From contig JAHYJO010000001.1 in the NCBI GenBank assembly GCA_019429125.1, positions 7,088 to 71,087 on the forward strand: a stretch of 64,000 bases of DNA. The letters run 5' to 3'. The translations under genes and the position numbers were made by a program. The notes under the pieces were generated by a model that saw only the letters and a program-made list of their open reading frames with translations, had not been told where the DNA came from and did not search any database. This DNA comes from Nanobdellati archaeon. Lineage in GTDB: Archaea; EX4484-52; GLR71. Of the stretch, positions 15,001 through 63,881 are shown piece after piece. The stretch's first letter is position 1. The number at the start of each line of letters is the position of its first letter.

Positions 15001-17355
15001 ATCGGTGCAGGACCTAAGAAAGCAGTATATATTGATAGTGCTATGAATTCAAATCCAAATATAGTATTTGATTATTCTCCATATGTTGATTTGATTGCAA
15101 GCGATATTGCGGTCTATAATTGTGATGATTGGGCTATAAAAACAGGATGTTTAAATCAATGGATAAGAAAGAATGTTACTGTTGATACTAATTTACGAAC
15201 TGTCACAATTGATACTATAAGTCCGACTGGTGCATATGCATTGGCACAATATATATGTGGGAATAAGATTTGTGAGGATGATTATGGCGAATCTAATTCA
15301 ATATGCCCAACTGATTGTAAGATAGATGTACCGTCATTGCCTCCTATGCCTGCACAACCAACATCAGGTGGTGGTAGTGGTTCTGGGACTGGTGCGGGTG
15401 AGGGACAAGGTCGTGAAACGGGTGCAGGTGCAGGAGGTATAGATAAGGACAGTTCAGATATAGATGGCAAAGGAGGAGAATTAGTTCCTATTGAGATAAA
15501 ATCTACACTACTTTACATAACTTTAGCTCCAGGTGAAAAATCAATACATTCAATTGAGATAAAAAATAATCAGGATAAGAAAGTAACATCACAGTTAAGT
15601 GTGGATGGACTTGTCTGGGACTTGATTCAGCTTGAGAAAACTGAGATAAAAGTGGATGAGAAATCAACTGAAAATGTAAAAATATCTGCATATGTATTGC
15701 CATCTACAATGCCAGGTATTTATACTGGTGATATAGTTGTTAAAACAGGGACTATGGTATATAGGACTCCTGTCACAGTAAAGGTTGAAATTAAAAAGGA
15801 AGCGCTTTTAGATGTCATAATTGAGACATTGTCAAGTGTGGTCAAGCCCGGTGAAGATGTAAAATTCATGGTTACTGTCAAGAATATGGGTGAGACTGAG
15901 ACTGTTGAAGACATAACACTTGAATATGTCATCAAGAGTCTTTCAAATAATACTATCATTACGACATATACCGAGACACTTGCAGTCAATAAATCATTAT
16001 CATTTGTCAAATCATTAAATATACCTAATAATACAAAAGAAGAACGGTATGTCATAACTTTAAATGCAAGATATGCAAATGCTGAAAAGTTTGCAACATC
16101 TTCTGACGTTGTTGATGTAAGCACACAACCATGGCCTATAGTCCTTCTTCTTAGATTGTTTAAGAGTTGGGTAACTTATGTCATATTATTAGTTGTATTG
16201 CCAATTCTTTATTTCGGACGAAAAGCATATCTATCATATCTCGACAAGAAAAAGAAGGGCGCGAGATATATATTCCCTATGGACTATTCAAAACTGCCAC
16301 AGAAAGGTGAAGAAAGTGTTAAGGTCGGTAAGATTGCAGAAACAGATATCAATGCATACATTAATATCAAGAACTTGACTATGCACTCAATTGCAGCAGG
16401 TGGTACTGGTTCTGGTAAGAGTGTAACTGCAATGTCAACGGCTGAAGAGTTATTAGACCTTGGCATCCCTGTTGTAGTATTTGACCCTACAGCACAGTGG
16501 AGTGGGTTTATGAGACCATGTAAAGATCCGCACATGCTTGAATTATATGCTAAGTATGGGCTTAAGCCTGAAAATGCAAAATCATATAAGACAAATATCA
16601 TTGTTGTTGAGAGCGCAGACAGCCTTACTGATGCAGAAATAGATATACGACAATATATGAAACCTGGTGAAATCACAGTATTTGTAATGAGCAAGTTGAG
16701 TTCATCAGAGCTTGATAAGTTTGTAAGAAGGACTATTAAGAGCATATTTAGCATACAGTGGCCTGAAGCGAAGACTTTGAGAGTTCTTATTGTGTATGAT
16801 GAGATGCACAGACTGCTACCTAAGTATGGCGGTAAGGGTGGATATCTTGAACTGGAACGTGGATGCCGTGAATTTAGGAAATGGGGTCTTGGTCTGTTTA
16901 TGATATCTCAGGTATTGGCGGATTTCAAGGGTGCTATAAAAGCTAATGTCGCAAATGAGATCCAATTAAGGACAAAGTATAATGGAGATATACAGCGTAT
17001 CAAACAAAGGTATGGTCCGGATTATGCTATGCGGGTGGCAAAACTTACTGTCGGTGCAGGGCTGATACAGAACCCTGAGTATAATGAAGGTAAACCATGG
17101 TTTATTCAATTCAGACCACTTTTGCATGATACTGGAAGATTAAGCAATGAAGAGCTTGATGTTTATATGGGTTTGAAAAAATCAATTGATGAGATTGCTT
17201 CAAAAGTTGCTAAGATGAAAGCAAAAGGTATGGATACATATGACATTGATATTGAAGTCAATATGGCACGTACTAAACTGCAACAGGGTGTGTTCAAGAT
17301 GGCTGAGACATATATACAGTCGCTTAAAGCAAGGTTGTCGTCAATGGCAGTATGA
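1..17355 (+). CDS. Giant repetitive cell-surface glycoprotein, 5'-truncated by the window edge. Extracellular region of more than 5,300 aa, C-terminal TM anchor, cytoplasmic HerA/FtsK-like ATPase domain.
   Basis: Uninterrupted frame-1 ORF from nt 1 (the track M at 106 is internal; upstream codons continue the repeat motif YAVGPQKWKYG) to TGA at 17353-17355. Very dense NxS/T sequons and paired Cys motifs (DDCGLV, WYNCT, DSCY). Modular repeats. C-terminal hydrophobic span followed by Walker A/B motifs. Confidence 0.85.
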   Translation, partial: YAVGPQKWKYGLLNNPAYNSTNSTEFYYNITTAPLVVMLESPIGGITFEKGVNNILLRGNVSDDCGLVKGANVEINIVKDETTYATCNPAGDENTGWYNCTIVNTTHNTWPVGLYNITMKADKKYYNDSEMLVVENAFRLVIRPILSNPTATSIQGGSVGGWGELWDFTVDISDPDGDSSNVSFWINLTGSWEFMDSVIWAQGNPTITFSGKTFSCADALDLGVKQYKFNVSDDYNYTSNITSTMTIEKDDVFVNPTATGGQSVDRNGTVTILLQTQIMDMDKAYAPVGSGVDGMTWVTVNGSDLSSYDGGYGLQTDASGYLNYNFDINCSYTTGQHAWKGGTFASVCYKDSISSTMYFDSLGKLYTDIELPVNGSNYGTGTQIIMRANVTSECVNEGLIDSEVKGFEFKSPSSSWYGCSPINEEEGLDTGWYNCTWDSTFKQPGNWTIRTNASNDTYYTAVNTWVDYFELLNNPPSYSDMNVTPDAGAWGTVYTFSVNFTDSDADTVDCDLYVTTDNGATWKLRNSTTLTSPAVCNLTVSDFDCGDIGNDNFFKFGLDDGYNTINTTNMSGPNITVDNIEIIYVYGNDKDVNRSYGILPLKVYVNDTTKGSFVSPNVPVYFNITTDGVAYNLEGSNVTVNGNSTYSFIPSCSYYEGEQTWYAEVNDSCYIPKNTTEYNLTVYGTLTNTLDIPNGVEYLPNNNITLRANVTSDCPAEVMNDTDVTFRYFRTGYSNTCTVENESTSYYNCTFNNTGMSPGYYDFEMNSSKSFYNTDSRVFSYVYGISSFWLETLPVLTTPTVSPGVGGWGETFYFTTNATDRDLDTMTVRLWLRKKPAGSWVQKNITTVQGINQTVNLSTRFPSGGDMGDWEFNFTVTADDSWDVYGTQNVSFTVEANDVRIEIISGNDSIVNRSSLPGNSNPNVTFGVRVFDDDLNALIPYSITTRFYVTKDGSNFTILATPQNETSEFYVTLNPDCSYGIGPQMWKASSVFSMNSWYKRINTSDQYFNITTVPLSTEISEPAGITTVRDMDNILLRANVTDECGLVVGASPVIVVERLTVPYFTCPTDGSLQYEGNGYYNCTVPAASMSGWPTGNYDVKIDSSKVYYNSSETNIKNNAFRLVTVPKVDNTVITSLSATGSSDFGWGEDWTFTVDVLDEDNDNVNVYLWANLTGNWELLDSTTCTNCGGSTHTIEFTGLKFLCTHIGNRDFKFNVSDDYSYTNETVGTFDIIKDDTVTYYGMVGDSSQIDREGNDVEIFSVRVRDIDFNAYVGTTIPNATGKIFVTTDGVSYDAGTQNQTDVSGYLYYTFNPDCNYLVGAQKWYGGPRGDSCYMDSDSSMFDTTITGQLKSSITNPAYSSSVLVGDIVNLNSSVFDECFVPVSGVTITHQAGPLSVDFEDITPVSDAGDGYYNSTWDTMFHQGGNWSFMLNASKINYYSNSTVYEEWLYLDNTPPVVENFTVSPTIEGWGHVYTYDAQMYDIQQDNITCDLYVSTDNGVSWVLKNSTFIETVSTLGVANCTLSLSNFDCSEIGTDNQYKFQIDDGTNVFNTSSISGPNITKDTVSIDYVFGNDSIVNRSGSQTTLFSARVLDSDKGSIPVMTGSSVTFWTTYDNVVYDLGYVISTNSTGYANYNFNPVCNPVKYEVGLQYWSAGVTDSCYSSINTSSNYTTIIYGSMDNQILLPLGTKFISGIDNVTIRSNVTSDCSVEETMNETLVNFTMTSLYTGTPYGCTTEVYNESTGYYNCTFETVGKEPREYNITMNATKEYYITNITTMTYLASVSSFRIENVPFMTAPVVSPGVGGWGETFFFTTNVTDADNDSMTVRLWLRKISGGSWVQKNITTVQGINQTVNLSTTFVSGNDIGDWEFNFTVTADDSWDVYGTENVSFIVEPNDVRIEIISGNDSIVNRSSLPGNSNPNVTFVVKIYDDDRNVLINIPIQTRFYVTKDGSNFVTLGDISNNSGYFFATLNPDCTYAVGPQMWKVASVFSGSSWYKLANSSNLNFNITTIPLATELSEPFGITRVRSVDDILLRANVTDECGLVSGASLEFFVDQSAIPYFTCPSDSTLNDENDGYYNCTIPAESTSGWSTGDYNINYTVSKVYYNSSDIIMENDAFRLVTVPQVSNPVITTLTSIGYSDFGWGEDWTFEVDVLDSDQDNVNVYLWVNLTGEWELLDSTVCTNCGTTQTISFGGHGFSCSNIGNRDFKFNVSDDYSYTNYTVGTFDIIKDDTITYYGGLGDLSQIDREGSDFETLTVQIFDADYNDYVGSSIPIATGKIFVTTDGVNYDIGTSNQTDASGYLYYMFNPDCSYLVGNQKWKGGSKGDACYVDSDSSMFDMTITGQLKSSITNPVYSSSVLVGDSINLNASIFDECLILVPGVTITHQAVSPSLEFEEILPVSDSGVGYYNSTFDTMFHQGGNWSFMINSSKVNYYSNSTLFSNWTYLNNTPPTVENFTVSPDEDGWGRVYSYEAQIFDTQMDNITCDLYVSTNGGAIWTLKNSTFIETVPTSGFANCILSLSNFDCSEIGTDNLYKFQIFDGTNKFNTSEISGPNLTKDTVSIDYVFGNDSIVNRSGSQTTLFSARVLDSDKGSIPVMTGSSVTFWTTYDNVNYNTGSVISTNSTGYATYQFNPTCSPVNYEVGPQYWKAGVTDSCYAQINFTQDNYTTTVMGDIINTIENPFYGTEYLRGENVTVRSISTPTIMDDCTASLLNIDNSIIFYNENGVANYSCITNEVGGGYYECIRNTTDMVARWYDTEMVSWETYYNNGTVLLQNHIFVKTAPNMTDETAITSVGGWGETFYFSVNVTDEDLDNVTLNLYIKNTASGPFGIWGAPKNSTILYSPQGEYAVLSWSDAPYCTIGTWEYKFEAIDTHGDTTFTDAHNFTIEKDDVEVLYSVGDGSYVWRNGSDSTTLTLDIVDSDRGNISVGTGTSARFWVTTNANDSSSWDLGKDTATLEGAIEYYFMNQFPDGGQKCDYTVGIQKWKGGTLNDICYKDQNSTEYDLSVNSSLVPNITNVYSQGYLRGDYIPLLTSVTDDCGSVSNVTLSYALLNMPNQYVCSKQSNVGWNESDGDYNCTWDSTNKPYKWYNVIATVSKEFFVTNMTSGNDRFFLGVTPQLDSLAVAPKIGGWGENHQFSVRLTSFDLATNNVSLWKSFDNVSWDLVNWQTVIMPIGQWVYFNERFTCNDYLTPPSGLNYYKIISKNVFGFSTETPVYNYTLNYDNVTLSITPASNDTVRRLGVTNALFEARIYDTDYGIYQNNTDANIWVTKDGSVFDYNESCSSLDGYCRINYDPQCDSDAGVQKWKIEVYDLCYQNINSTNVTVSVIGQLYSNVASPEQNDILNLNTTINLNTTVYDECGNNIVDASVYWYNSVPVSIASGYDTTWNVPLSYTKGPESIITNSTRQYYDNGTNMTDVYVYGWSIISSMSPLDLSSYLAGYDVPVQCTVTDANTTSNLTNYNVSFYKNDVFQDSNMTDSNGTAVWTWVTDLEPYGWYNLSCMISNDDTLYYTPAVAQMNTTVRVNRTLMIQSIVLSNPDIYRNDSFAPYDTNITVNIYDALFGPADNADVWFYNSTGFIDNCTTDVAGNCYISYNAPDNITPQGYAVYVNSTKAGLEDSITDNTIIGVYGIYYINITEPDNGSSWSKAIILNLSSYIENENGYVDTATVNWYIDSGFVATGQNTTSPLISQLPGPKILQSNATRPYYITGTDNILLNINGLVDVMWWYPLNGSKQAYPGSFDVQCLVKDNTSGVSVVGYAVDFWYWNGSDYVYNGTYTTNELGIAGYTWYPESKGVLDFKCNITDNATVFYSPNIGDDIATIIVEDINPPVISNVSIILNSTLEANLNYTNITAVVIDDVFVYSVIASITLPNGTIVNETMSNVFNDTYRVEYLPPVGGNYSVDIVASDSPPENNTNIVYAGDFSVWGTADIIGERTDEYVAFGITQVSDESFVLTVNATNNGPATAYDVSITVLEDPIGTVTYNTTNYECGNLSVGVMCSRDFLVTVPSKTAPQLITVYSTIWWDNPDKTPNSTVGITLIDVASNPVVDILEIFIQNQTKHGETTIIGTLTVSSAGNDYVDNIVLSKVGIILDLSCPLCNLTMSKQVEETLPAGEFFTSVISIDVPYGQSAGDYWTYISAKSDNAAQDLVIVNATVPLDVTWEREPSTFGTILALVNTTTTQIGVISTKNNGNSERNLIVQSGGNGSLFITKSPNSSSLGIGASRNVTLNYSIPALTTQGMYYVQIHIRESSANPSDAITDFWLNVTDLPPVISNVSIKPRGYEPDVGYSNISAVVIDNVLVSHVWLNSTKPNGTDEIYYFTLNGSDAYLNYSENETGVHKVVICANDSANLISCTMIYDISVMVNTTVVTETNITNTTIYGIMLDTGLNVSFNFTTLNDGYSRALDVNTSVLYPVLWNVSPSEFNMGDIILMPYQGEALLLIPADVIGEYYINFTSNWTNYDGSNDTLMTPIRIVIGSNPALNVTDMPASFVIESGKTLSTNLTLKSIGNDIAKSIAFNCTEGVVCSEFNVSFNPLVIVNLTKGNSTNFTINISVPLGYLAGVYDGVFTVYESKTNLSVNITVVIPANLTWEHNPVIISKNVIANRTGNFGSVRVSNMGNIPLTVSAISTNTTIFTINESSINLPLGDYYDAMINYSAPEVFSLVTYSAYFRTTNITALPSDRETFLNITIYPLYLDIITPTTVVPKLNVSKGKNITAIFNLTYSLVPVSENVTWQINLTKDSTSFSVNITPENINYSAISGLWTINFTAPDILAGVAYDLVAIVFDEINNIEIISVEKKAIIYTDTIPPLLFVDLFSNIINGSVIPIYVNTTDVGGMDYVSVEITTPNGTIFAYNATLLDSVGNDYFYNLDFIETSVLGAYPVAISAYDLSSNVNTTNVIFNAYLPSYFRGYSYDLESVDNETVVSAEFKLYKHDESVLMHNFWSDNVTGLYNESVYVRLYDVVVDVLNLTLTFDDFSMPLGGIFNPLVFGDIPIALIGAGPKKAVYIDSAMNSNPNIVFDYSPYVDLIASDIAVYNCDDWAIKTGCLNQWIRKNVTVDTNLRTVTIDTISPTGAYALAQYICGNKICEDDYGESNSICPTDCKIDVPSLPPMPAQPTSGGGSGSGTGAGEGQGRETGAGAGGIDKDSSDIDGKGGELVPIEIKSTLLYITLAPGEKSIHSIEIKNNQDKKVTSQLSVDGLVWDLIQLEKTEIKVDEKSTENVKISAYVLPSTMPGIYTGDIVVKTGTMVYRTPVTVKVEIKKEALLDVIIETLSSVVKPGEDVKFMVTVKNMGETETVEDITLEYVIKSLSNNTIITTYTETLAVNKSLSFVKSLNIPNNTKEERYVITLNARYANAEKFATSSDVVDVSTQPWPIVLLLRLFKSWVTYVILLVVLPILYFGRKAYLSYLDKKKKGARYIFPMDYSKLPQKGEESVKVGKIAETDINAYINIKNLTMHSIAAGGTGSGKSVTAMSTAEELLDLGIPVVVFDPTAQWSGFMRPCKDPHMLELYAKYGLKPENAKSYKTNIIVVESADSLTDAEIDIRQYMKPGEITVFVMSKLSSSELDKFVRRTIKSIFSIQWPEAKTLRVLIVYDEMHRLLPKYGGKGGYLELERGCREFRKWGLGLFMISQVLADFKGAIKANVANEIQLRTKYNGDIQRIKQRYGPDYAMRVAKLTVGAGLIQNPEYNEGKPWFIQFRPLLHDTGRLSNEELDVYMGLKKSIDEIASKVAKMKAKGMDTYDIDIEVNMARTKLQQGVFKMAETYIQSLKARLSSMAV
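4681..4845 (+). repeat. 165-nt tract nearly identical (1 mismatch) to 7669-7833, inside otherwise ~85-88% identical repeat units.
   Basis: Direct comparison. aaagatacggtgtctattgattatgt(t/a)ttcggtaatgattcaattgtcaacaggtctggtagtcagactactttattttctgcacgagttcttgattctgataagggaagtataccagtaatgaccggttcttcagtcactttctggacaacttatgataatgtg occurs at both sites. Confidence 0.85.
7669..7833 (+). repeat. Second copy of the near-identical 165-nt tract (partner of 4681-4845). The offset equals the super-repeat period of 2,988 nt.
   Basis: Same as above. Confidence 0.85.
15337..15480 (+). other. Pro/Gly/Ser/Thr-rich low-complexity linker (SLPPMPAQPTSGGGSGSGTGAGEGQGRETGAGAGG) between the repeat ectodomain and the membrane-proximal domains. 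It is preceded by a small Cys cluster (CGNKICEDDYGESNSICPTDC).
   Basis: Read from the translation. The antisense ORF at 15282-15470 is its shadow. Confidence 0.6.
16132..16215 (+). other. Predicted single transmembrane anchor of the giant protein (WPIVLLLRLFKSWVTYVILLVVLPILYF), followed by a basic stretch (GRKAYLSYLDKKKKGAR).
   Basis: 28-residue hydrophobic stretch followed by K/R-rich residues (positive-inside rule), placing the downstream ATPase in the cytoplasm. Confidence 0.6.
16380..17352 (+). other. C-terminal FtsK/HerA-superfamily (DUF87/VirB4/TraG-like) P-loop ATPase domain fused to the giant surface protein.
   Basis: Walker A AAGGTGSGKS (nt 16399-16422), then VVVFDPTAQW, Walker B LRVLIVYDEMHRLLP (DE at 16798-16803), then ERGCREFRKWGLGLFMISQ (RKxG...SQ arginine-finger region). 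Order and spacing are typical of the HerA/VirB4 clade. Confidence 0.7.
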
Positions 17356-19404: not shown

Positions 19405-22400
19405 TTGTCGGTAAAAGCTAACAAACAGTGGCATATTTATGTAGTAATTGCAGTGTTAGCTTTAATGTTTTTTTCAAATTCAGTAATGGCATCTTTTGAT
19501 TCTTATTGGTTTGATACGGATTGGCATTTCAGGACGAATTTTACAATAAATAATACGGATTATGATAGGGACTATTGGCCTGTTGAACTTGATATAAATT
19601 TTACAGATATAATGCTTCAATCGGGTAAAAATGGCACATTTGATAATGAGTCAATTAGGGTTATTGAACATGATTTTAGTGGGGCTGTATTGTTTGAACA
19701 TCCTTTTCAGTTTGATAATAAAATTGGGTTTAATGTTAGTACGAATGCGGTAGGAACTATTGTTTTTCTTTTGAATGGGACAACAAATGCTAATCAGATA
19801 AGATATATTTATGTATATTTTGATACTGTCGAAAATACTGTCAAGGTGCCTGTTTCATATTCAACAAATCTTGTGTATTCTTGGGACGGTGAGGAAGCGC
19901 ATGTCAATAATAGTCTGTTTAATATGAAGATTGATACACTTAGGGGTGAAAATACATCAGGTATATATGATATTTATTCGAATAACATAATATTTTCTAC
20001 TTCTTCTACAAATAAAACAAAGGAATATACACAATTTTCAAATGGGACAGATATTTTTTCATTTGATTTTAGAAATAATGCTACATTTTCTGGTGGAAAT
20101 ATAAAAAGAGTTATGGAGCAGACAGGTGTTGAGACTTTATGGAATAATCCTGGTTTAGTTACTGGTTTTGGGTTTATGAAAAAAAGGTATATATTTTATG
20201 AAAATACATCATGGATAAAGATTGAACAAAATTATACAAATGTTGGTGTGTCATCAGTGACTCGAAATTCCACAAGTGCGGGAGCGTTATCTGTGAATGA
20301 TATTTCAACAGATGAATTTAATGGACCATTTAGGTTTGGAGATATGACTAATCCAATGTCTTGGTATGGCGCATCAGATGGTAGTCGTGGTCTTGGTCTG
20401 ATAAATTTTAATTATAGTTCTAATGCAAATTTTTATGTAAAAAATGATACAATTTTAGATCGTATGGGAATTCATCTTGACCCTGTTGTAATTATACCTA
20501 ATGAATCTGTAACTAATACAGTCATAATGCAGTTTAACGGAATTAATTATAATCAGGCAATGCTTGAATCACTTAGGAATCAGATGGCATATCCACCAAT
20601 AATTGTTCTGGAAAATAATCAATTCATTCCTGTGACTATTGTTCCAAAAATAAATTATTCAATCTATAATAGAAATGATTCAGTGCTTATAATTGCAAAT
20701 GTAACTTCAGATAAGTATAATGTTATCACATCAATGAATGCTACAGTTGATATAGGTACTGCATCTACATCTGATGATATTTTGATTAGCCTCTACGATG
20801 ATGGGTTATCTTTACATGGAGATGAGGTTGCTTATGATGGCATTTTTTCTAATATCTTTAATCCCTCTGAGAACAGTATAATAGGGGTATGGGACGTTAC
20901 TGTTCGTGCATTTGACTCTTTTGATGTAGTTCTCAATGAAGTGAATGTGTCGTTTAATGTAAGTGATATGTATAATGTGTCAATAAACATATCAAACCCG
21001 TCAGGTCTCGTTGATAGGGTTATATATGTGATTATAACTGTTCTGAATATAAGGGATGAATATATAGGTGGTGTATCTTTCAATTGTACTTATGGTGCTG
21101 GATTGCTGACAAATATAACAGATTATGATAACGGTACATATATACTTAATTTCACTGCACCGTCAATAACTGGTAATTATATTCTTGGTTGTAATGGTAC
21201 TAAGTTCAATAATATGGGGAATGACTCACAGTTTTTCAATACTGAAACGAGTGAGACAACAATTGCACTTGCGGTATCTCCACAGAATTATACTTCAGAT
21301 AATATTTCTCTATTAGTAGGTGATTATTTTGAAATAAGTGTGAATGCAACAGATGTTGGAGGGGCTAATGCAAAATATGTAAACATATCGTTGTCACTAC
21401 CTGTTAATTTAACTGCTAATTCTACTTTTGAATCTTGTGGTGATGTTTTTATGAATTTATCATGTGTTAAGGATTTCAATATAAGTATAATTAATGGTAC
21501 TGTTTCTGGAAATTATACTATAAATGTAAGTGCTACATGGTTGAACCCAAATCTTCTTACTAATTCCACTAATATTTCATTTATAACGTATGTCTATTCA
21601 AATCCTGTAATTGATATTTTGGGTGGCGGTTTAACAGGGGTTGTACCTGATGGTAAAAATGTAACATTGGGTAGTTTTAATGTGGATTCAATCGGTAATA
21701 GTGATCTTACAAACATAACATTTAATGTATCTGGTATTTCTGATTTTATTGTAATATTTAGTCCCAAAAATATATCATCATTATCTTTTGGGAGTTCACA
21801 GCCAGTCTCTGTTGAAGTTATAGTGCCACAGGATTATGTGTCGGGTAATTATTCAGGCATAATAAATATTAGTTCTGATAATGGTGGATGGAAAACTGTA
21901 GAATTGAACTTGACTGTGCCGGGAACAACTATAATATCATTACATAAAACTCCAGATAATTATACCTCTTCAATAATCTCTTTGTATTCTGGGGATTCAT
22001 TTGATGTGGATGCAATCATGACTAATGATGGTATTTCAGATGCAAAGGATGTAAATATTACATTATCTATGCCTCAGAATCTTAGTGCTAATTCAACATT
22101 TGAGCAATGTGGGCGTGTAAATGATAGTGGTTATTGTACAGAACAGTTTAACATAACAATTAGTGCGTTTACAGTTCCTGGAAATTATACTTTTAACATG
22201 ACATCAACATGGGTCAATCCTGATTTATCAACAGATTCTGTCTTATTGAATTTTACCGTTCAGGTAGTATCTAATCCAATTATTGATGTTATAGGGAACA
22301 TTTCAACCGAACTGCCTGACAATTCATTTGTTGCTGCTGGAAATTTTACTATATATTCAATAGGTAATTATAACCTTACAAACATAACATTTGATGTTAT

Positions 22401-25326
22401 TGGGCTTTCAGGTTTTAATGTTACGTTTAATCCAGTTAATGTATCTGATCTTGGAGCTATTTTGTCTCGTTTGATTTATGTTAATGTTTCTGTACCATTT
22501 GCTCAGTCTCCAGGAAATTATACAGGCTTAATAAATATTACTTCTGTAGATGGGGGATATGATACTGTTGAGATTAATGTAAGTGTCGTGACTAGAAAAG
22601 CTTGGGATGTTACACCTAAAACTTGTCTCCGGTCTGAGAATCCTGATACAGGTACCGTGTGTCTTGTCAGTATCATGAATACTGGGAATGTTCCGTTAAA
22701 TTTTACGATTAATCCTGTGGAAATTAATTATACTTCTGTAAATGAAACAAACATGACTGTGTTAAAGGATTCAATATATGTGGTTGAGTTTTTGTATAAT
22801 GTAACAAATGTGACCCGGACATTTTATTATGAGAATTATACGATTAATGTGAATGATGTTGATGTTTTTCCGCAATATTATGATTTTAATATTACGCTTG
22901 TCCCTTATGTTGAGCCTTTATTTTCTGTAAATTTGAGTGAAGTTGTAGCTCAACAGGATACGAGCATTGAAATATTTGTAAATATAACTGACAGGTCTAC
23001 AACTGGTATAAATTGGACAAGGTTGAATGTTACACTGCCAAATGGTACGGTTGAGACTTTTAATATGTCACTTGTTTCGATAAATGGTACAGATAGCTTA
23101 TGGTTCTTTAATTATTCTGGAAACATGTCTGATTTTGTTAATTATACAGATGGCAATGTGTCGCTTAATATTTCTAATTATACAGGTACTACTCTTGCAC
23201 GAGGTATATATAATATGACTATTTCATCACAGGATAATACTGGTGTAATTGGGTTATATAGTAGTAATTTTAAAATATATACAACTTTTGTTATAGGGTT
23301 TACTCCAGGGTCAACAAAGTATTATCAAGGTTCTTTAGGTATGATATATTATACTGTTACAGATACGAATGGGGATGCTATTGAAGGCGCTAATGTTACG
23401 ATATCACTTAAAGATCCAAATGGTTATGTGATATATATTGAGAATTTTATGATGGATTCAACAGGACAAGTGTCACCTGTGCCGACATTTTCTATCGCTA
23501 ATGATGCAACAGTTGGTATTTATAATTTTACTGCGGAAATGACTTATTATGATACTGTCTTGGAGACGAATGTGACAGTTGTTGATAATTCAACGTTTAT
23601 ATTACAATCGGGAAGTTCAGGTGGAGGTGGCGGTCTCACGGCAGACATTGATACGGGAGTATTGTGGTATCCTGATAATGTTATGCGCTTTGAGATGTGG
23701 TTCTCTTATGCAGGCAATGTCACAGAACCAGATAACATGACACTTTTTGTATATGATCCTGCTGAAAATCTATATTTTAATATAAATCTGAATGATACAA
23801 ATAATACTGCGCCCGGACTATATCATTATAAATTTGCAATGCCCATGAGTTCGGCGTCAGGGTATTACTATGCTATTCTTACTGCATCAAAAGAGGGTTT
23901 TGTAAGTCAAAAAGTGAAACCATTTAGGGTGTCTAAAGGAGGACCGTATGATGTCCGTGTGATGTTAATACCACCTAATGAGGTTGAGCGTCAGGATTAC
24001 GTCAATTTCAATCTATATATAGAGAATATGGGTGAGGTTACTCAAGATGTATATATTGATTATTGGGTGTCTTTTGGGAATGATACTTATTATTATAACA
24101 GTGAGGCGGTTCTTACTCCTGCTGGTGTAAATGTTACTATTACACGAAGTGCATACATATTTTCAAATCAGCCATTAGGTATAACTACTCTTAATGTTAT
24201 GGCAACATATGATAGTGTACAACCACCTATCATTTCAAATACTACTTTTGAAGTGATTGAAGATGAAATTGTGATTCCACGAAAACCGGATATTCCAGAA
24301 GTATCACCACCATTACCTACTGGGTGGCCTGAGATACCTGACAATATCGGTGGAGGAAGCAGTTTTCAACCCAATTCTGAATTTGATGAGGAATACAGCA
24401 TCGATATTGATACATACAATAAAGAAATAAATATCGTGAAAGGATGGACAGATATAAGCGGGATCCGTGTGAGAAATAATGGTTTGGATACAATTAATAA
24501 TATCACTCTGGAACTGACCGGCATACCTATGTCATGGTTTAATATAACACCTAATATGTATGAGACGATACCCTCGGGAAACAGTACCTTATTCCTTATT
24601 GAATACAGTGTGCCTAAAGATGCGAATTCAGGTGTGTATCCTTTTAATCTCATTGCAATATCTAATGAGATATCATCTAGTAAGATGGGGCGACTTATTG
24701 TGTTTACATCTATTGAAGAGTTGATAAGGCATGATATAGTCAATTTAAAGATTGAGATAAGTAAGATTGAAGAAGATATATATTTCTCTCAACGTATAGG
24801 GAAAGAGGTTTCACATATATGGAACACGGTTGATCAGGCATGGTCTGAACTTGTCCTTGCGGAAGAAAATGCAGATGCTAAATTATTTGATGATGCACTC
24901 CAGAATATACAGGTGGTTTCTGGACTTGTAAAAAGAGCTAAGATGCTTCTTGAGACATCATCAAAAATTGAAGATCTTGATGATGGGAATATTTGGATTA
25001 CTGCTTTGAAAGTGTTAGTTGTTATGGGGCTATTTGCGCTGGTCAGTGTATGGTGGATACGTAAAAAGGATAAGTTCAAGCTAAAAAAATCATTGAATAA
25101 ATTTAAGAAAAAAACATTGAGTAAAGAGGAGATTGAGATACGTCAAAAAGAGTTAATTTATGATAAAACTAAAATTCAAAGAGTATTGAAGCTTTTAGAG
25201 CGTGAGTCCAAAGATGGAACAATAAATAAAGATGCGTATGATGAATTAAAGAATATTAACGATAAAAAGTTATCTGCAATTGATAAAAAAATAAAAAGTT
25301 TGGGCGCCAATAAAGGAAGCAAATGA
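19405..25326 (+). CDS. 1,973-aa secreted surface glycoprotein with an N-terminal signal peptide, tandem ~210-aa Cys-containing modules, and a C-terminal TM anchor plus short cytoplasmic K/E-rich coiled-coil tail.
   Basis: TTG start 5 nt after the upstream stop. Signal peptide MSVKANKQWHIYVVIAVLALMFFSNSVMA. Many NxS/T sequons. Duplicated module (...NLTANSTFESCGDVFMNLSCVKDFNISI... / ...NLSANSTFEQCGRVNDSGYCTEQFNITIS...). TM ALKVLVVMGLFALVSVWWIRKK near the C-terminus. Confidence 0.8.
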   Translation: MSVKANKQWHIYVVIAVLALMFFSNSVMASFDSYWFDTDWHFRTNFTINNTDYDRDYWPVELDINFTDIMLQSGKNGTFDNESIRVIEHDFSGAVLFEHPFQFDNKIGFNVSTNAVGTIVFLLNGTTNANQIRYIYVYFDTVENTVKVPVSYSTNLVYSWDGEEAHVNNSLFNMKIDTLRGENTSGIYDIYSNNIIFSTSSTNKTKEYTQFSNGTDIFSFDFRNNATFSGGNIKRVMEQTGVETLWNNPGLVTGFGFMKKRYIFYENTSWIKIEQNYTNVGVSSVTRNSTSAGALSVNDISTDEFNGPFRFGDMTNPMSWYGASDGSRGLGLINFNYSSNANFYVKNDTILDRMGIHLDPVVIIPNESVTNTVIMQFNGINYNQAMLESLRNQMAYPPIIVLENNQFIPVTIVPKINYSIYNRNDSVLIIANVTSDKYNVITSMNATVDIGTASTSDDILISLYDDGLSLHGDEVAYDGIFSNIFNPSENSIIGVWDVTVRAFDSFDVVLNEVNVSFNVSDMYNVSINISNPSGLVDRVIYVIITVLNIRDEYIGGVSFNCTYGAGLLTNITDYDNGTYILNFTAPSITGNYILGCNGTKFNNMGNDSQFFNTETSETTIALAVSPQNYTSDNISLLVGDYFEISVNATDVGGANAKYVNISLSLPVNLTANSTFESCGDVFMNLSCVKDFNISIINGTVSGNYTINVSATWLNPNLLTNSTNISFITYVYSNPVIDILGGGLTGVVPDGKNVTLGSFNVDSIGNSDLTNITFNVSGISDFIVIFSPKNISSLSFGSSQPVSVEVIVPQDYVSGNYSGIINISSDNGGWKTVELNLTVPGTTIISLHKTPDNYTSSIISLYSGDSFDVDAIMTNDGISDAKDVNITLSMPQNLSANSTFEQCGRVNDSGYCTEQFNITISAFTVPGNYTFNMTSTWVNPDLSTDSVLLNFTVQVVSNPIIDVIGNISTELPDNSFVAAGNFTIYSIGNYNLTNITFDVIGLSGFNVTFNPVNVSDLGAILSRLIYVNVSVPFAQSPGNYTGLINITSVDGGYDTVEINVSVVTRKAWDVTPKTCLRSENPDTGTVCLVSIMNTGNVPLNFTINPVEINYTSVNETNMTVLKDSIYVVEFLYNVTNVTRTFYYENYTINVNDVDVFPQYYDFNITLVPYVEPLFSVNLSEVVAQQDTSIEIFVNITDRSTTGINWTRLNVTLPNGTVETFNMSLVSINGTDSLWFFNYSGNMSDFVNYTDGNVSLNISNYTGTTLARGIYNMTISSQDNTGVIGLYSSNFKIYTTFVIGFTPGSTKYYQGSLGMIYYTVTDTNGDAIEGANVTISLKDPNGYVIYIENFMMDSTGQVSPVPTFSIANDATVGIYNFTAEMTYYDTVLETNVTVVDNSTFILQSGSSGGGGGLTADIDTGVLWYPDNVMRFEMWFSYAGNVTEPDNMTLFVYDPAENLYFNINLNDTNNTAPGLYHYKFAMPMSSASGYYYAILTASKEGFVSQKVKPFRVSKGGPYDVRVMLIPPNEVERQDYVNFNLYIENMGEVTQDVYIDYWVSFGNDTYYYNSEAVLTPAGVNVTITRSAYIFSNQPLGITTLNVMATYDSVQPPIISNTTFEVIEDEIVIPRKPDIPEVSPPLPTGWPEIPDNIGGGSSFQPNSEFDEEYSIDIDTYNKEINIVKGWTDISGIRVRNNGLDTINNITLELTGIPMSWFNITPNMYETIPSGNSTLFLIEYSVPKDANSGVYPFNLIAISNEISSSKMGRLIVFTSIEELIRHDIVNLKIEISKIEEDIYFSQRIGKEVSHIWNTVDQAWSELVLAEENADAKLFDDALQNIQVVSGLVKRAKMLLETSSKIEDLDDGNIWITALKVLVVMGLFALVSVWWIRKKDKFKLKKSLNKFKKKTLSKEEIEIRQKELIYDKTKIQRVLKLLERESKDGTINKDAYDELKNINDKKLSAIDKKIKSLGANKGSK

Positions 25327-25756: not shown

Positions 25757-26791
25757 TTGTGGATTATTATGTTGTGGAGTCAGATGAGGTTAAGATATTT
25801 TAAAAAACAATTCTGCTTGGGCAGTCTTATTATATATGTTAGTTTTATGGTATGTTTATTCATCTTTACTAATCCAATTTATGCAAAAGAACTTCAGGTT
25901 GGTGTGTCTCCTTTAATGCTTGATCTTGGAACTGTGAAAAAAGGAGAAAGTGTTGTGGGGTCATTTTTTATTGTGACGTCATCACAAGATGATATTATTG
26001 TGAAATTAAAATCATCACGTTCTAATTTTGATTTCTTTAAAAAACCTATAAATATAGATATTGTTAATTATGTGTCTGAAGAAGATAGTTCCGGATGGGT
26101 TTATTTTCCTGAGAATCCATATGTTCTCAAATCTACAGAGTATGTGTTAAATACCAAAGGCGGAACAATATCTGATTGGAAAAATGTTAATTTTGTGTTG
26201 AATGTCCCTGAGGATGCTGAGTCATGCTATCATGCATTTAAGATTGAACCTACACCTTATACAACAAAAGAAGAGGCTAGTTCTGTAAGTATTGTTGCAA
26301 TGGTAACGATTACTGTGAAATTTCAGGTTGCTGGTGGATGTGAGGTCAATGGAAATATATTGGATGTCATGCAGGATACTTCAAGTAAATATATTGATTT
26401 AGGTGTATATTTTAAGAATACAGGTAATGCAACGTTTTCAGCGTATAGTCCTGACGTGATGATATTTTATGAGAATGGCACATTGCTTGATAAGCAACGT
26501 TCGGGATATGCTTATTTTACTCCTGGAGATATTGGTGTGTTGAATGCACGGTTTGATCCAAAAAAGATTGTTCCTGGTAATTATATTGTAAATACTACAG
26601 TATTATATGGTGCTAATACAACATCAAAACAAGTGCCACTTACTATTGAAAGATCAGTGGTTGCAAAAATATCGACAGTAGTTTCAAAGACACCTGATGG
26701 TACTGATAATACTTTTTGGATATTGCTACTTGCAATAATTCTGATAATTGTTGGCGCCTATAAATTCTATAAGGTCGAAGATAAAAGATAA
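25757..26791 (+). CDS. Exported protein (344 aa) with an N-terminal signal anchor and a C-terminal TM (FWILLLAIILIIVGAYKFY). Hypothetical surface protein.
   Basis: ORF with hydrophobic N-terminus, NxS/T sequons and a C-terminal hydrophobic helix followed by a basic tail. Confidence 0.6.
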   Translation: MWIIMLWSQMRLRYFKKQFCLGSLIIYVSFMVCLFIFTNPIYAKELQVGVSPLMLDLGTVKKGESVVGSFFIVTSSQDDIIVKLKSSRSNFDFFKKPINIDIVNYVSEEDSSGWVYFPENPYVLKSTEYVLNTKGGTISDWKNVNFVLNVPEDAESCYHAFKIEPTPYTTKEEASSVSIVAMVTITVKFQVAGGCEVNGNILDVMQDTSSKYIDLGVYFKNTGNATFSAYSPDVMIFYENGTLLDKQRSGYAYFTPGDIGVLNARFDPKKIVPGNYIVNTTVLYGANTTSKQVPLTIERSVVAKISTVVSKTPDGTDNTFWILLLAIILIIVGAYKFYKVEDKR

Positions 26792-26799
26792 ATGCTAAT

Positions 26800-26890
26800 A
26801 GATGTTAATAGATGATAATCTAGAATAATTGATGATAATTGATGATAATTGATGATAATTGATGATAATTGATGATAATTGATGATATAT
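26800..26890. repeat. 10-bp tandem repeat: (gatgataatt) x5 perfect at 26831-26880, plus degenerate flanking copies, about 9 units in all.
   Basis: Directly visible. Starts about 10 nt after the stop of the 25757-26791 gene. Non-coding. Confidence 0.9.
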
Positions 26891-27218
26891 CTATATTTTT
26901 TTGGTTTTTGTTAATTATTATTTTATTCAAACTTTGACATTTCTGACTTTTTTGTTTTTTATCGTTTTTTAAACACCTGAATTGGACAGATATTAGTACA
27001 GTACTAGATTGCGTTTTTTATGTTTTTTAACTTATTTTTCAATACCTCATTTGACAATTTGTATTCATAAATCAAAATATGTTATTAGGGGTTTGATATA
27101 TATTGAAATTCCGATTTAATCTATAATAAAAATTAAGAAAATTCATAAAAAGTAGCCAAATGAATTTGACAGTTGGGCTAAAATTTAAAAAAATGATTAA
27201 ACAAATAGATATTTATTC

Positions 27219-27475
27219 GTACTTGTTTAGCAAAAAAATAATCGGCATACTACGATCATCATGATGTGATTTACATACATTATACTTTTTATAAAATCAA
27301 TAGCTACAGCTTGAAAATGTGTAGTTAATTTTTGTTAAAAAATATTTACTCCTTTTTTGTAAAATCGATAGCTTGCAAGTAACGTAGAAAATTATAACTT
27401 AAAAATATTTCAACAAATAATGACCGTATCAAAAAAATCGTAAGCAAGTAAGACAAAATTTAGCTAAACAAGTAC
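27219..27475. mobile_element. 257-bp MITE-like non-autonomous element, copy 1. It has perfect 13-bp terminal inverted repeats GTACTTGTTTAGC/GCTAAACAAGTAC and is flanked by a perfect 8-bp direct duplication ATTTATTC.
   Basis: TIR at 27219-27231 and 27463-27475. ATTTATTC at 27211-27218 and 27476-27483. 97% identical to the second copy at 63509-63765. No ORF. Confidence 0.7.
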
Positions 27476-27676
27476 ATTTATTCTTATTTTTTACCATAAA
27501 TTAACTTATTTTTAGTCAAAAAGAAAGAAAATTATATGGAAAATGGAAGTAAAGTACTAAAAATAGCTAACTGTCAAATAGATATTCTGAATGAAATAGT
27601 TAACAAACTGTCAAACTTAGGTTTCATCTCTAGTTCAGTGGGTAATGTGGGCTCTTGAGAGCAATTATTATGAACC

Positions 27677-27684
27677 TATATAAG
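27677..27684 (+). promoter_or_regulatory. Candidate archaeal TATA box (tatataag) about 32-39 nt upstream of the ATG at 27716. This implies a leaderless or very short-leader transcript.
   Basis: TATA-like octamer at appropriate spacing. Inference only. Confidence 0.35.
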
Positions 27685-27715
27685 TACTTAAAACCAATAA
27701 TATTTTGTGTTCTCT

Positions 27716-28264
27716 ATGAAAAAACAGTCAAAAAACTCAAAAAAAATAAATTTAATTAAATCTTTACCAATAATCATGCTTGCTGTATTGATTGTTTCTT
27801 TGTTTGCTATCGTTTTTCATACACCCTCCTTTGAATCTGATAATCCTGTTAAGAATCATACTGTGCTGTATGAGGAAGGTATGTTTTACACTTATGAGAT
27901 TAATAAGTATCCCACTTCTGTGGAGATAAGTGATATTGATGAACGTAACCTGTCTGTTGGTTTTTCACTTGAGACATCAAGTCTTAATTTCGGGGTAGTT
28001 CCTACAGGAGGGAATATGGGTAAGAGGTTTTTGACTTTAAAGAATACGCAGGACAGTAAAGCAAAGATGATGTTTGTGGTATATGGTGGTATATCTCCTC
28101 TGATAAAGTTTAATGATAACGAATTTTATCTTTTGCCCGAAGTTCTTAAAGACATTGAGATTGTGCTTGAGACAAAACAGGACACAATGGTTGGTAATTA
28201 TTCTGGTGAAATTAATATTGTTGTCAAAAGGTCAAAATATGAATTTTTAGAATGGTTGTTATGA
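27716..28264 (+). CDS. Hypothetical exported or membrane-anchored protein (about 182 aa). First of an eight-gene same-strand run of exported-protein genes (27716-36405).
   Basis: N-terminal basic region plus hydrophobic helix (LPIIMLAVLIVSLFAIVF). ATG at 27716 is preferred over the track's GTG at 27707. Confidence 0.5.
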   Translation: MKKQSKNSKKINLIKSLPIIMLAVLIVSLFAIVFHTPSFESDNPVKNHTVLYEEGMFYTYEINKYPTSVEISDIDERNLSVGFSLETSSLNFGVVPTGGNMGKRFLTLKNTQDSKAKMMFVVYGGISPLIKFNDNEFYLLPEVLKDIEIVLETKQDTMVGNYSGEINIVVKRSKYEFLEWLL

Positions 28265-29097: not shown

Positions 29098-31929
29098 ATG
29101 CTTAAGGAGATTTGTATGAAATTTGGATATGTATGTTTTATTGTTTTTATCTCCTTGTTATCTTTAGGAAATTGTGTGTATGCAGTGCCAGTATTGAATG
29201 ATTTATCTGTTCAGAATCAAGAAATTTGGCTTGGTGAAACAGAGATAATATTTGTAAATTGTACAGATGATAATCAGATTGTATCTGAGGTGTATGCAGA
29301 TATAAGTACAACGAGCGCATTGTATCCCGGTAATTCTTTCTTGTTGGATGCAGACGGTACTTATTATTTGCCTGTGTCTACATCTTTACAGTCTAATTTC
29401 AATAAGGTTGGTATCTTTGATGTGGTGGTCTATTGTCGGAATGAGAATGGGGATTCTGTAAATTCGTCCATATCATTTACTGTCTCAAATTTGAGTCTTG
29501 AGATTAGTAGTATGTCATCTTCTGTATATATCGGAGACATAGCGGAGATTAATCTTTTTGTCAAGAAAGATGGAAGTTCAATAAGTTCTGATGTCATTGA
29601 TTTTGAGGTGTTTTATGCAGGCAAAACAATATCTTTATTGTCACCACCTTATTATGATTTTGAAAAAGGGTGGGTATTAAGATACTCTACTGCTACTTTT
29701 GTGGCTGGGACTTATACATTTTCTATTGTTGCAAATTATTCTGGTAGTGAGATTGAGGCAACTAAAGGAGTAAGTATATATAATCCTGTTGATTTTTCAA
29801 TAGTTAATGTTGGTTCTTCATGGATTTCAATAGAAGAGACTGTCACTGTCTCGGTGAAAGCAACTGAGAGAGGTAATCCTATAAAAATAGATGAAAATAA
29901 GATGTCTGTACGTATCGATTCAACAACTGTAAGTAGCTTTGAGGTATTGGCGGCGTCAACAAGTAATGTTTATGATATAATATTTACAGCACCATCATTG
30001 TCTTCTGGAAAACATACACTTAAAGTATATTTTAAGTATGAGAATGATTCATTATATGATTCTGAGAATGTAATATATGTAATATCTGCTTCAGGGGTCA
30101 TGTTTATTGAAACAGATAATACTCATGTGGTTGACTTAAAGTTTAAGTCAGATAAAATAACCAAAGATGTGCGGACGGATAATAAAGGGAAATATTTGTT
30201 ATCTTTTCCTCCTGATGTTTATAATATAGAAATTAAAGATAGTTTTTTTACGCTTGGTATATCTAATGTGGAAATAGATGAGTTTGATGATGCGATAAAA
30301 TATCAGTATCTCCCAACATCATATGTGGATGGGATTTCGGGGAGTGGTATATTTTATTATGGTATTGCATCTGAACTGGATTATGATTATCTCAGTCTGA
30401 AATTAAAGTATGATTCAAGTAAGATTCATGATATTTCTTTGCTTGAAGTATATGTATGTACTGATTGGGATACTGGAAATAAGAAATGTCTCTCTGAATG
30501 GAATGTTATTGATTCTGAGATTGACAGTTTGAGGAAAACTGCAACAATTAGTCAGGCAGTGCTTAATGCAGCATATATAGTTGGAAATATTGATTCGTTG
30601 AATGTTGCAGGAACCATTGAAAAGGCGATATATAATATTAATGATGAGATAAAGATAACAGGACTTAGTCAGGACACTGCAAAAAATGTGGTTTCTGATG
30701 TAACATTTGATGCATATATTTCAGGAACATCTATTGAAGCTTCAGGTGTGTCTGATTCAAAAGGATTGTTCTCATTCAGTATTTCAAATCCAAAAGATGA
30801 AGGCAATTATACTCTTATCATAAATGCATCTAAAGATCCGTTTTTATCGGCACAAAAAAAAATTTATTTTGAGGTCTTGAAGAGAAAAGATGTGGCTATT
30901 GTCAGTCCTGATACAATCCGTTTGTATCCGGGGGATTCGTCGGAGGTTGAATTTTTAATAATAAATACGGGAGAATCTGCTCTGTCAAATATGTCTGTAT
31001 CATTGAATGGTTTACCATCGAGTTATTATCAGATGATATATCCGGATAATATCTTGAATCTGAAAGAATCTGAAGAGAGCTCAATTATTGTTTATTTTGA
31101 TATACCTATTAATGCGTCAAAAGAGATGATTAGTGTGTCATTTGAACTATCAGGGTCTGGGATATCTAAGAAACAAAATGTTGTTATGAATATATTTGCG
31201 CCAAAAAATGATAGTTTAGGGGTAATATCTGCATCTTTATCTGAATCATCAATGTCTGATAATAATTACGGTTTTTTTTCTTTGGATAAATTATCATTAT
31301 TTAGTATGCCTACAGGGAATTCTATTGCACTTTTGGCATCAGGTGAAACCATATATGTGTTCTTGTTTGCGATGTTAAGTTTTTCAACTGCATTCTTATT
31401 TAGGAAACGAAGGTTGACAAATGTATACAGCAACAGATTAAGGGAAAGTAACAGATTGCTCATATTTGAGATAAGAAAGCATATGTTTAAGGTGACGGGT
31501 TCTGATACTATTGATAATTTTAATGTGTGCGGTTGGGGTAGAAGATATGAACAACATAAAAAGCATACAAAAACAAATATGAATATGAATATGAATATGA
31601 ATATGAATATGAATACGGATAATGATATAAATACAAATACAAATAAATCAACAAGTGATATTTCAACAAGATTAGAGAGGGCGATTGTAGCGTCGTGTCC
31701 TGTGGATAAGAGAGTTATTGAACCGAACATTGAATCTGATACAAGATTAGACAAGAAGAAAGACTTAAAATTAGATTTGATCTCTGACATATATGACAAT
31801 CTGAATAAAGATTCAAATGAGAAAAAAGGATTAGATAATTCTGGAGATATAGAGAAATCAGAGGACAATGATGATGTCGATTCAAGCATGAGTGGTGAAG
31901 AATCAGAAACGAAGGTGTTGGAAAATTGA
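29098..31929 (+). CDS. 943-aa secreted glycoprotein with a signal peptide, a C-terminal TM (IYVFLFAMLSFSTAFLF), and a cytoplasmic tail containing an (NM)n / N-T-rich low-complexity tract.
   Basis: Signal peptide MLKEICMKFGYVCFIVFISLLSLGNCVYA. Many sequons. TM near residue 750. The tail includes an NMNMNMNMNMNMNTDNDINTNTN segment. Confidence 0.75.
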   Translation: MLKEICMKFGYVCFIVFISLLSLGNCVYAVPVLNDLSVQNQEIWLGETEIIFVNCTDDNQIVSEVYADISTTSALYPGNSFLLDADGTYYLPVSTSLQSNFNKVGIFDVVVYCRNENGDSVNSSISFTVSNLSLEISSMSSSVYIGDIAEINLFVKKDGSSISSDVIDFEVFYAGKTISLLSPPYYDFEKGWVLRYSTATFVAGTYTFSIVANYSGSEIEATKGVSIYNPVDFSIVNVGSSWISIEETVTVSVKATERGNPIKIDENKMSVRIDSTTVSSFEVLAASTSNVYDIIFTAPSLSSGKHTLKVYFKYENDSLYDSENVIYVISASGVMFIETDNTHVVDLKFKSDKITKDVRTDNKGKYLLSFPPDVYNIEIKDSFFTLGISNVEIDEFDDAIKYQYLPTSYVDGISGSGIFYYGIASELDYDYLSLKLKYDSSKIHDISLLEVYVCTDWDTGNKKCLSEWNVIDSEIDSLRKTATISQAVLNAAYIVGNIDSLNVAGTIEKAIYNINDEIKITGLSQDTAKNVVSDVTFDAYISGTSIEASGVSDSKGLFSFSISNPKDEGNYTLIINASKDPFLSAQKKIYFEVLKRKDVAIVSPDTIRLYPGDSSEVEFLIINTGESALSNMSVSLNGLPSSYYQMIYPDNILNLKESEESSIIVYFDIPINASKEMISVSFELSGSGISKKQNVVMNIFAPKNDSLGVISASLSESSMSDNNYGFFSLDKLSLFSMPTGNSIALLASGETIYVFLFAMLSFSTAFLFRKRRLTNVYSNRLRESNRLLIFEIRKHMFKVTGSDTIDNFNVCGWGRRYEQHKKHTKTNMNMNMNMNMNMNTDNDINTNTNKSTSDISTRLERAIVASCPVDKRVIEPNIESDTRLDKKKDLKLDLISDIYDNLNKDSNEKKGLDNSGDIEKSEDNDDVDSSMSGEESETKVLEN
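31575..31614 (+). repeat. Hexanucleotide microsatellite (AATATG)n, about 6-7 units, in-frame within the 29098-31929 CDS. It encodes the (NM)n segment.
   Basis: Directly visible. The unit length of 6 preserves the reading frame on expansion or contraction. Confidence 0.85.
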
Positions 31930-62933: not shown

Positions 62934-63491
62934 TTGCTTATGTATCTGGCGTATATCTTACCATTTATTGAATTGGTTGAAAGTCTGCAGCTGTCTGCAA
63001 TACTTTCACAGATATATTTTATTATTTCAGTGCCATTTTTTAATTCAGATATATTGTGGACTGTATTTCCTTTGATTACTACAACTATTATAATTGAACT
63101 TTATTTCGGGTCGCATAAAGAAGAGTCTCTCGGGTGGAACAGTGCAACTGCAAATGGTCTTGTGCTTGTCTATGTTGGCATTAATATTGTAAAAGACCTG
63201 CTTGATTCGGGTGCATTTAATACTGATTTGTTGGGGTCTCAGATTGCTTTGGGTATACTTGGTATGGGTGGTCTTTTGGTTTTTGTAAGTTTTTTCCATA
63301 TATTGCCTAAAGAGATTGCATTTTTTATATCCTCTGGGCTTGTTGTGCATTACCTTGCATTTTTAGGTGTGGTGTTCATATATACGGGTATTGTATATAC
63401 TGAATTGACACTTTATGCAGCTATATTGATATTTGTGGCACTTGTTTTGTTCTTTAATATTGTAAAATATTTTGAGCCTGATTTGGACTGA
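62934..63491 (+). CDS. Hypothetical polytopic membrane protein (185 aa).
   Basis: Several hydrophobic helices. No recognisable family. Confidence 0.45.
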   Translation: MLMYLAYILPFIELVESLQLSAILSQIYFIISVPFFNSDILWTVFPLITTTIIIELYFGSHKEESLGWNSATANGLVLVYVGINIVKDLLDSGAFNTDLLGSQIALGILGMGGLLVFVSFFHILPKEIAFFISSGLVVHYLAFLGVVFIYTGIVYTELTLYAAILIFVALVLFFNIVKYFEPDLD

Positions 63492-63508
63492 GAATTAATA
63501 GATGTTCT

Positions 63509-63765
63509 GTACTTGTTTAGCAAAAAAATAATAGGCATGCTACGACCATTATGATGTAACTTACATACATTATACTTTTTATAAAATCAATAGCTACAGC
63601 TTGAAAATGTGTAGTTAATTTTTGTTAAAAAATATTTACTCCTTTTTTGTAAAATCGATAGCCTGCAAGTAACGTAGAAAATTATAACTTAAAAATATTT
63701 CAACAAATAATGACCCTATCAAAAAAATCGTAAGCAAGTAAGACAAAATTTAGCTAAACAAGTAT
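63509..63765. mobile_element. 257-bp MITE-like element, copy 2. TIR GTACTTGTTTAGC / GCTAAACAAGTAt (12/13). Flanked by GATGTTCT / GAGGTTCT (7/8). Lies 30 bp from the 3' end of tRNA-Ser.
   Basis: About 8 mismatches over 256 aligned bases against copy 1. Flanking 8-mers at 63501-63508 and 63766-63773. Confidence 0.65.
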
Positions 63766-63795
63766 GAGGTTCTTATTTATAATTATTAAAAAAAG

Positions 63796-63881
63796 CGTGG
63801 GGGACGAGATTTGAACTCGTGTGAGTCGAAGACTCAGTAACTTAGCAGGCTACCGCCATGGCCGGGCTAGGCGACCCCCAC
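63796..63881 (-). tRNA. tRNA-Ser (anticodon GCU), class II with a long variable arm, no encoded CCA.
   Basis: Manual fold of the reverse complement. Acceptor GTGGGGG/CCCCCAC, 3-bp D-stem with AGCCCGGCCA D-loop, anticodon stem GTAGC/GTTAC, loop CTGCTAA, variable arm GAGTC-TTC-GACTC, T-arm ACGAG-TTCAAAT-CTCGT, discriminator G. Confidence 0.85.

Follow-up and report, generated by a model that had tools for sequence, protein, structure and literature searches.

Prokaryotic miniature inverted-repeat elements (MITEs) are defined as sequences of 50–800 bp that carry terminal repeats of at least 10–15 bp, are flanked by target-site duplications of 2–10 bp and encode no transposase (PMC11602168). The 2024 NAR census lists 18,091 MITEs in archaea, and the archaeal genomes in which they are densest are DPANN genomes, those of Ca. 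Altiarchaeum hamiconexum and of a Woesearchaeon (PMC11602168). The view that such elements are barely catalogued in small-genome archaea, expressed in the initial annotation of the DNA studied here, is outdated given this census. The SM1–SM4 MITEs of Sulfolobus solfataricus (Redder, She & Garrett 2001), as they are summarised in PMC10969869, are present in 25–44 copies per genome, and their partner insertion sequences have been identified. Here we analyse a repeated 257-bp element of a DPANN archaeon, which is very likely a miniature non-autonomous DNA transposon, that is, a MITE, of a previously unseen sequence family.

Results

The window (the whole 64-kb stretch of DNA that was analysed) belongs to a metagenome-assembled DPANN archaeon with locus tags K0B07_; the proteins encoded next to the two copies of the element are 100% identical to MBW6461426.1 (K0B07_00030) and MBW6461465.1 (K0B07_00225). 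The nearest relatives are metagenome contigs and metagenome-assembled genomes labelled Aenigmarchaeota, Nanohaloarchaea or just 'archaeon'. The window has a GC content of ~34% and contains housekeeping genes, including those for A-type ATP synthase subunits, an ABC transporter, malic enzyme, NrdD with its activase, and a ZIP transporter. One RNA gene was detected in it, tRNA-Ser(GCT) on the minus strand (63795–63881), which is also the sole Rfam match reaching the gathering score.

A giant ORF of 5749 aa (106–17355) contains internal tandem repeats of ~2,991 bp at 74–83% identity and, with the ORFs of 668 and 1973 aa that follow it, makes up a cluster of very large surface-type proteins, which is partly syntenic in two of the relatives' loci (L084 and L086). 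An ORF of 943 aa (29098–31929) has a run of (Asn-Met)n (NMNMNMNMNMNMN) near its C-terminal low-complexity acidic tail.

We analysed the ends and the flanks of the element. Copy A (27219–27475, plus strand; repeat family D4) is 257 bp long and non-coding. Its left terminal inverted repeat is an exact match to GTACTTGTTTAGC (27219–27231, plus strand), and its right terminal inverted repeat, GCTAAACAAGTAC (27463–27475, minus strand), is the perfect complement of the left one. The same 8-mer, ATTTATTC, flanks the copy on the left (27211–27218) and on the right (27476–27483), with 8/8 positions matching. The 257-bp length, the perfect 13-bp terminal inverted repeats and the 8-bp duplication given in the initial annotation can thus all be read at copy A. 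Copy B (63509–63765, plus strand) is also 257 bp long and has the same orientation as copy A. Its left repeat (63509–63521, plus strand) is preserved at 13/13 positions and its right repeat (63753–63765, minus strand) at 12/13, the terminal base being mutated: the final base is T in copy B and C in copy A. Copy B is flanked by GATGTTCT on the left (63501–63508) and GAGGTTCT on the right (63766–63773), which match at 7/8 positions and, as had been annotated, differ from the 8-mers around copy A. The distance between the copies, noted before as 36.3 kb, is 36,290 bp. A second copy 97% identical to the first had also been reported; the copy does exist, but its identity, 248 of 257 positions, is 96.5% (97% fits 248/256).

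When the two copies were aligned together with 100 nt of flanking DNA on each side, similarity was confined exactly between the inverted-repeat ends and the flanks were unrelated. Extended flanking homology, which the initial annotation had named as the mark of a plain duplication, is therefore absent. The window contains two copies of the element, as a sensitive self-BLAST revealed neither a third copy nor a fragment in the 64 kb.

We estimated how often such ends and flanks would be expected by chance. With the base composition of the window, fixed ends would carry a perfect inverted repeat of 13 bp with a probability of 4e-8. A flank match of 8/8 has a probability of 4e-5 with the window composition and 1e-4 with the local AT-rich composition; for a match of at least 7/8 the corresponding values are 8e-4 and 2e-3. 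The joint probability of the 13-bp inverted repeat and of the 8/8 and 7/8 flank matches is far below 1e-10. As judged from these values, the observation of the element is real, and chance falls far short of explaining it.

Nine of the 257 positions distinguish the two copies (3.5% divergence). Six of the nine differences fall into a variable patch at element positions 25–52 (27243–27270 in copy A and 63533–63560 in copy B, plus strand; permutation P ~0.003). The changes in the patch are C>A, A>G, T>C, C>T, G>A and T>C, five of the six being transitions. Simple neutral decay does not explain the clustering of six of the nine differences in 28 nt. We also considered a diversity-generating retroelement, in which the copies would form a template/variable repeat pair. 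This candidate was rejected: the changes in the patch give no indication of such a retroelement, since they are not confined to adenines, and both copies lie outside genes.

We compared both loci with those of relatives. Copy B is located between the stop codon of an ORF on the plus strand (62934–63491) and the convergent tRNA-Ser(GCT) gene; it starts 17 nt past the stop codon, is separated from the tRNA's 3′ end by 29 nt and lies outside the T-rich tail of the tRNA. In six relatives' loci (L082, L083 and L096–L099), where the flanking protein is 59–85% identical to that of the window, the stop codon of the ORF is followed by 25–33 nt and then by tRNA-Ser(GCT), with no insertion. The window itself, after subtraction of the element and of one copy of the duplication, has 38 nt at this site. 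The C-terminus of the ORF (…EPDLD, then the stop codon) and the tRNA are intact beside copy B. The copy-B locus is thus a clean occupied-versus-empty comparison, and the search for empty sites proposed in the initial annotation found the site empty at all six loci. No trace of the element was detected in the 51.7 kb of relatives' DNA retrieved.

Copy A lies within an intergenic region of 924 nt, between ORF 25757–26791 and the start codon at 27716, ~195 nt upstream of a conserved promoter block of the next gene. The counterpart of this intergenic region is 124 nt long in L084 and L085 (protein 88% identical) and 115 nt in L086 and L087 (63%), and the element is absent from all four of these loci. 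However, the copy-A site is not clean as an empty site, because ~575 nt around the element are likewise missing in the relatives; the intergenic DNA common to them and the window is only the last ~75 nt before the start codon. The perfect 8-bp duplication at copy A shows that the DNA at this site was in place before the element inserted into it.

The ~575 nt without counterpart in relatives (26796–27210 and 27484–27633) contain no ORF. A nested insertion, with another mobile element enclosing copy A, was considered as the source of this extra DNA and rejected: we found no convincing terminal repeats or duplication, and the window holds no further copy of this DNA. A 10-bp tandem repeat (ATGATAATTG, ~9 units; 26792–26891) follows immediately on the stop codon of ORF 25757–26791; it is absent in relatives, and its unit resembles the coding sequence TGATAATTGTTG 40–50 nt upstream. 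On the other side of copy A, the ~75 nt upstream of K0B07_00030 (27634–27715; ATG at 27716) are 88–89% identical in relatives, including those in which the protein is only 63% identical; conservation of the leader or promoter of K0B07_00030 thus exceeds that of the gene itself. This non-coding stretch includes a TATA-like CTATATAAG ~38 nt before the ATG, and it had no match in Rfam.

We then turned to the interior of the element. It has no coding capacity; the longest stop-to-stop frame among the six frames is 37 codons, in agreement with the earlier statement that there is no ORF. The concatenated open segments of the six frames, which were used as a query in order to catch spurious gene calls within other copies of the element, had no match at E<=10 among 5.8 billion protein clusters. 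Two similar sub-repeats with TATA-like boxes had been described in the interior. The repeats are real: TTTTTATAAAATCAATAGCT and TTTTTGTAAAATCGATAGCT, 68 nt apart, are identical at 18 of 20 positions, and there is a third, weaker copy. A true TATA-like TTTATAAA, however, is present in one sub-repeat only, the other one having TTTGTAAA. The octamer TTTATAAA is rare in the window, with 8 occurrences on both strands together.

Each copy contains three AAAATCRWWAGC motifs, all on the plus strand and spaced by 68 and 73 nt. In copy A they start at 27293, 27361 and 27434 (span 27293–27445), and in copy B the same three start at 63583, 63651 and 63724. All six matches to AAAATCRWWAGC in the 64-kb window lie within the two copies, against 0.2 expected, a count that is descriptive only, since the pattern was derived from the element. 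These motifs are candidate transposase-binding sites or promoter-proximal repeats. We considered whether the interior originated from an internal tandem duplication of ~70 nt. This was rejected, as convincing sharing is limited to the 20-nt motif and the alignment of the three segments is weak; Tandem Repeats Finder reported nothing for the element.

We searched for a transposase that could act on the element and for related sequences elsewhere. No transposase or integrase was found by Pfam or NCBIfam among the 30 ORFs of the window that were scanned, consistent with the earlier claim that no cognate transposase is encoded there. Unscanned ORFs of at least 120 aa that do not overlap a larger ORF are 106–17355 (5749 aa) and 19405–25326 (1973 aa); ORF 62934–63491, also outside the scan, has database relatives without a Pfam domain. 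When 185,579 species genomes were scanned with TACTTGTTTAGCWAAAWWWT, a degenerate pattern fitting both ends of the element, there were 64 single chance matches in unrelated organisms, none of which extended past ~20–23 nt. In the JGI metagenomes the 23-nt end pattern matched 17 loci, all of them by chance, and in viral contigs the end pattern (7 loci) and the internal motif gave chance matches alone. These end scans required exact matches of 20–23 nt, so they would miss a partner that shares just the 13-bp repeat. Collections of plasmids and phages gave no match (blastn, distant mode), and a literature search for the terminal repeat sequence found no paper. With no sequence similarity beyond chance in the collections searched here, the MITE is apparently lineage-specific and apparently a new sequence family.

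Several other explanations of the two copies have to be weighed. The copies could be a plain segmental duplication, or a gene conversion, of an intergenic segment whose ends and flanking 8-mers are coincidental, and there are indeed just two copies seen, in the same orientation and on one contig. However, similarity halts exactly at the inverted-repeat ends with unrelated flanks on either side, the coincidence of repeats and flank matches has the joint probability given above, and the ancestral copy-B site is empty at six relatives' loci. This explanation is effectively refuted already, and we regard it as extremely improbable. It is also possible to see in the element a structured non-coding RNA gene, or a promoter or regulatory cassette, present in two copies, with the terminal 'inverted repeat' serving as its closing stem. 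The predicted fold of the complete element is somewhat stronger than that of shuffled sequence, for either strand (z = -2.6), a small hairpin is preserved between the copies through a change from G-U to A-U, and the TATA-like TTTATAAA and the three iterated motifs lie inside. The excess in folding, however, comes mostly from the 13-bp terminal stem, sub-regions having z = -1 to -1.5, and a covariance search of 26700–27760 against Rfam 15 gave no match even at E<=10. Furthermore, the element is missing at both loci in all relatives examined and thus is not a conserved gene, and an RNA or a cassette would leave unaccounted for the different 8-bp direct duplication of each copy. A conserved structured RNA had been put forward in the initial annotation as the alternative to a mobile sequence; the Rfam result and the relatives' loci speak against it, and we consider an RNA gene or cassette of this kind very unlikely.

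Equally slight, in our opinion, is the chance that the element is mobile but belongs to another class and is no derivative of a DDE insertion sequence, being instead the joined ends of a deleted integrative or casposon-like element, or the substrate of a tRNA-targeting integrase. tRNA genes are classic integration targets, and 29 nt separate copy B from the tRNA-Ser 3′ end; also, neither the window nor the database scans yielded a DDE transposase partner. Yet copy B neither overlaps nor duplicates the 3′ end of the tRNA, and copy A is near no tRNA, the sole one in the window being that at 63795–63881. Casposons make duplications of ~14–15 bp, and tyrosine integrases duplicate a specific att core. 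The hallmark of transposition with staggered cuts, in contrast, is the pairing of short, perfect terminal inverted repeats with a duplication of unrelated sequence whose length is fixed, here at 8 bp. IS200/IS605-derived elements have neither inverted ends nor duplications, and a palindromic element derived from them (PATE/REP-like), which would be marked by hairpins at or near its ends, was ruled out by the terminal inverted repeats, the 8-bp duplication and the interior, which is not palindromic.

Discussion

The above results indicate that the element is very likely a genuine MITE of an ordinary, well-known kind, and one unsurprising to a specialist. Its length of 257 bp falls within the range of 50–800 bp, its terminal inverted repeats match at 13/13 and 12/13 positions, its target-site duplications differ between the copies, and it is non-coding. 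The comparison of occupied with empty sites is clean for copy B and not clean for copy A. The unrelated flanks and the relatives' loci without the element support the proposal of the initial annotation that a MITE arrived at these sites by independent transposition. Short perfect terminal inverted repeats, fixed 8-bp duplications, the lack of coding capacity and the empty sites together argue for a transposon whose transposase is provided in trans. Weighing against this reading are the small number of documented copies, two, the failure to find a partner in the window or in the end scans, the unclean site of copy A and the clustered differences of the variable patch.

A mechanism can be proposed on this basis. 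A DDE-type transposase, encoded elsewhere in the genome or since lost, would bind the GTACTTGTTTAGC ends, and it may also recognise the three AAAATCRWWAGC motifs of the interior. The transposase would excise or copy the element (cut-and-paste or copy-in) and insert it where the two strands of the target had been cut 8 bp apart; repair of this stagger would give rise to the target duplication. Both insertions were probably near-neutral, as they are in AT-rich intergenic sites and disrupted none of the adjacent genes, nor the tRNA, nor the conserved promoter downstream. Copy B is probably no longer mobilisable, given its mutated end and imperfect duplication. Since the copies diverge by 3.5% and the nearest relatives in the sample (flanking proteins 84–88% identical) have the element at neither locus, the insertions probably postdate the split from these relatives.

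Two less ordinary versions of this history can be imagined, though taken together they are improbable. In one, a recently active MITE resides in a reduced, host-dependent genome that lacks any matching transposase, and is moved by a transposase that is supplied from outside or is of an unrecognised type; an outside supply would come from a virus, from a plasmid, or from a host archaeon through the cell–cell contact of a symbiont. Alternatively, the element may have been co-opted as a portable cassette carrying a promoter or binding sites, as could be suggested by the three AAAATCRWWAGC motifs and the TATA-like box.

The genomes of DPANN archaea are small and usually regarded as poor in mobile elements. 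Read as a MITE, the element documents recent transposition in such an archaeon at the level of single bases, through the element itself, its duplication and the relatives' empty sites. Its GTACTTGTTTAGC ends and the 8-bp duplication provide a precise probe for the responsible transposase in this lineage, and the element could act as a strain-level marker in population metagenomics. No concept is altered by the finding: archaeal MITEs are familiar, and bulk catalogues already cover those of DPANN genomes.

Target-site duplications of 8 bp are typical of IS6/IS26, ISL3, IS256, IS1595 and the ISM1 group, the last being archaeal (Methanobrevibacter smithii). The ends of IS6, ISL3 and IS256 typically begin with GG or GA. 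The element described here is like all of these families in its 8-bp duplication and short terminal inverted repeats; its ends, unlike those of IS6, ISL3 and IS256, begin with GTAC. These families are compatible with the element by the length of the duplication only, and no family is assigned.

Compared with the archaeal MITEs of the census, those of DPANN genomes included, the element is of the same kind by the same operational definition (PMC11602168). Bulk catalogues of this kind, however, provide no empty-site evidence, which for the present element is available from relatives. The element also resembles SM1–SM4, in so far as they are summarised in PMC10969869, in being archaeal, small and non-coding and in having terminal inverted repeats and target duplications. 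The resemblance to SM1–SM4, which the same summary describes as mobilised in trans by the transposases of resident insertion sequences, is also a functional one. The two differ in that SM1–SM4, again by this summary, have 25–44 copies and partners, while here there are two copies in the window and no partner was found. They differ as well in their hosts: SM1–SM4, in that account, reside in a crenarchaeon rich in insertion sequences, and the element described here resides in a small-genome DPANN archaeon.
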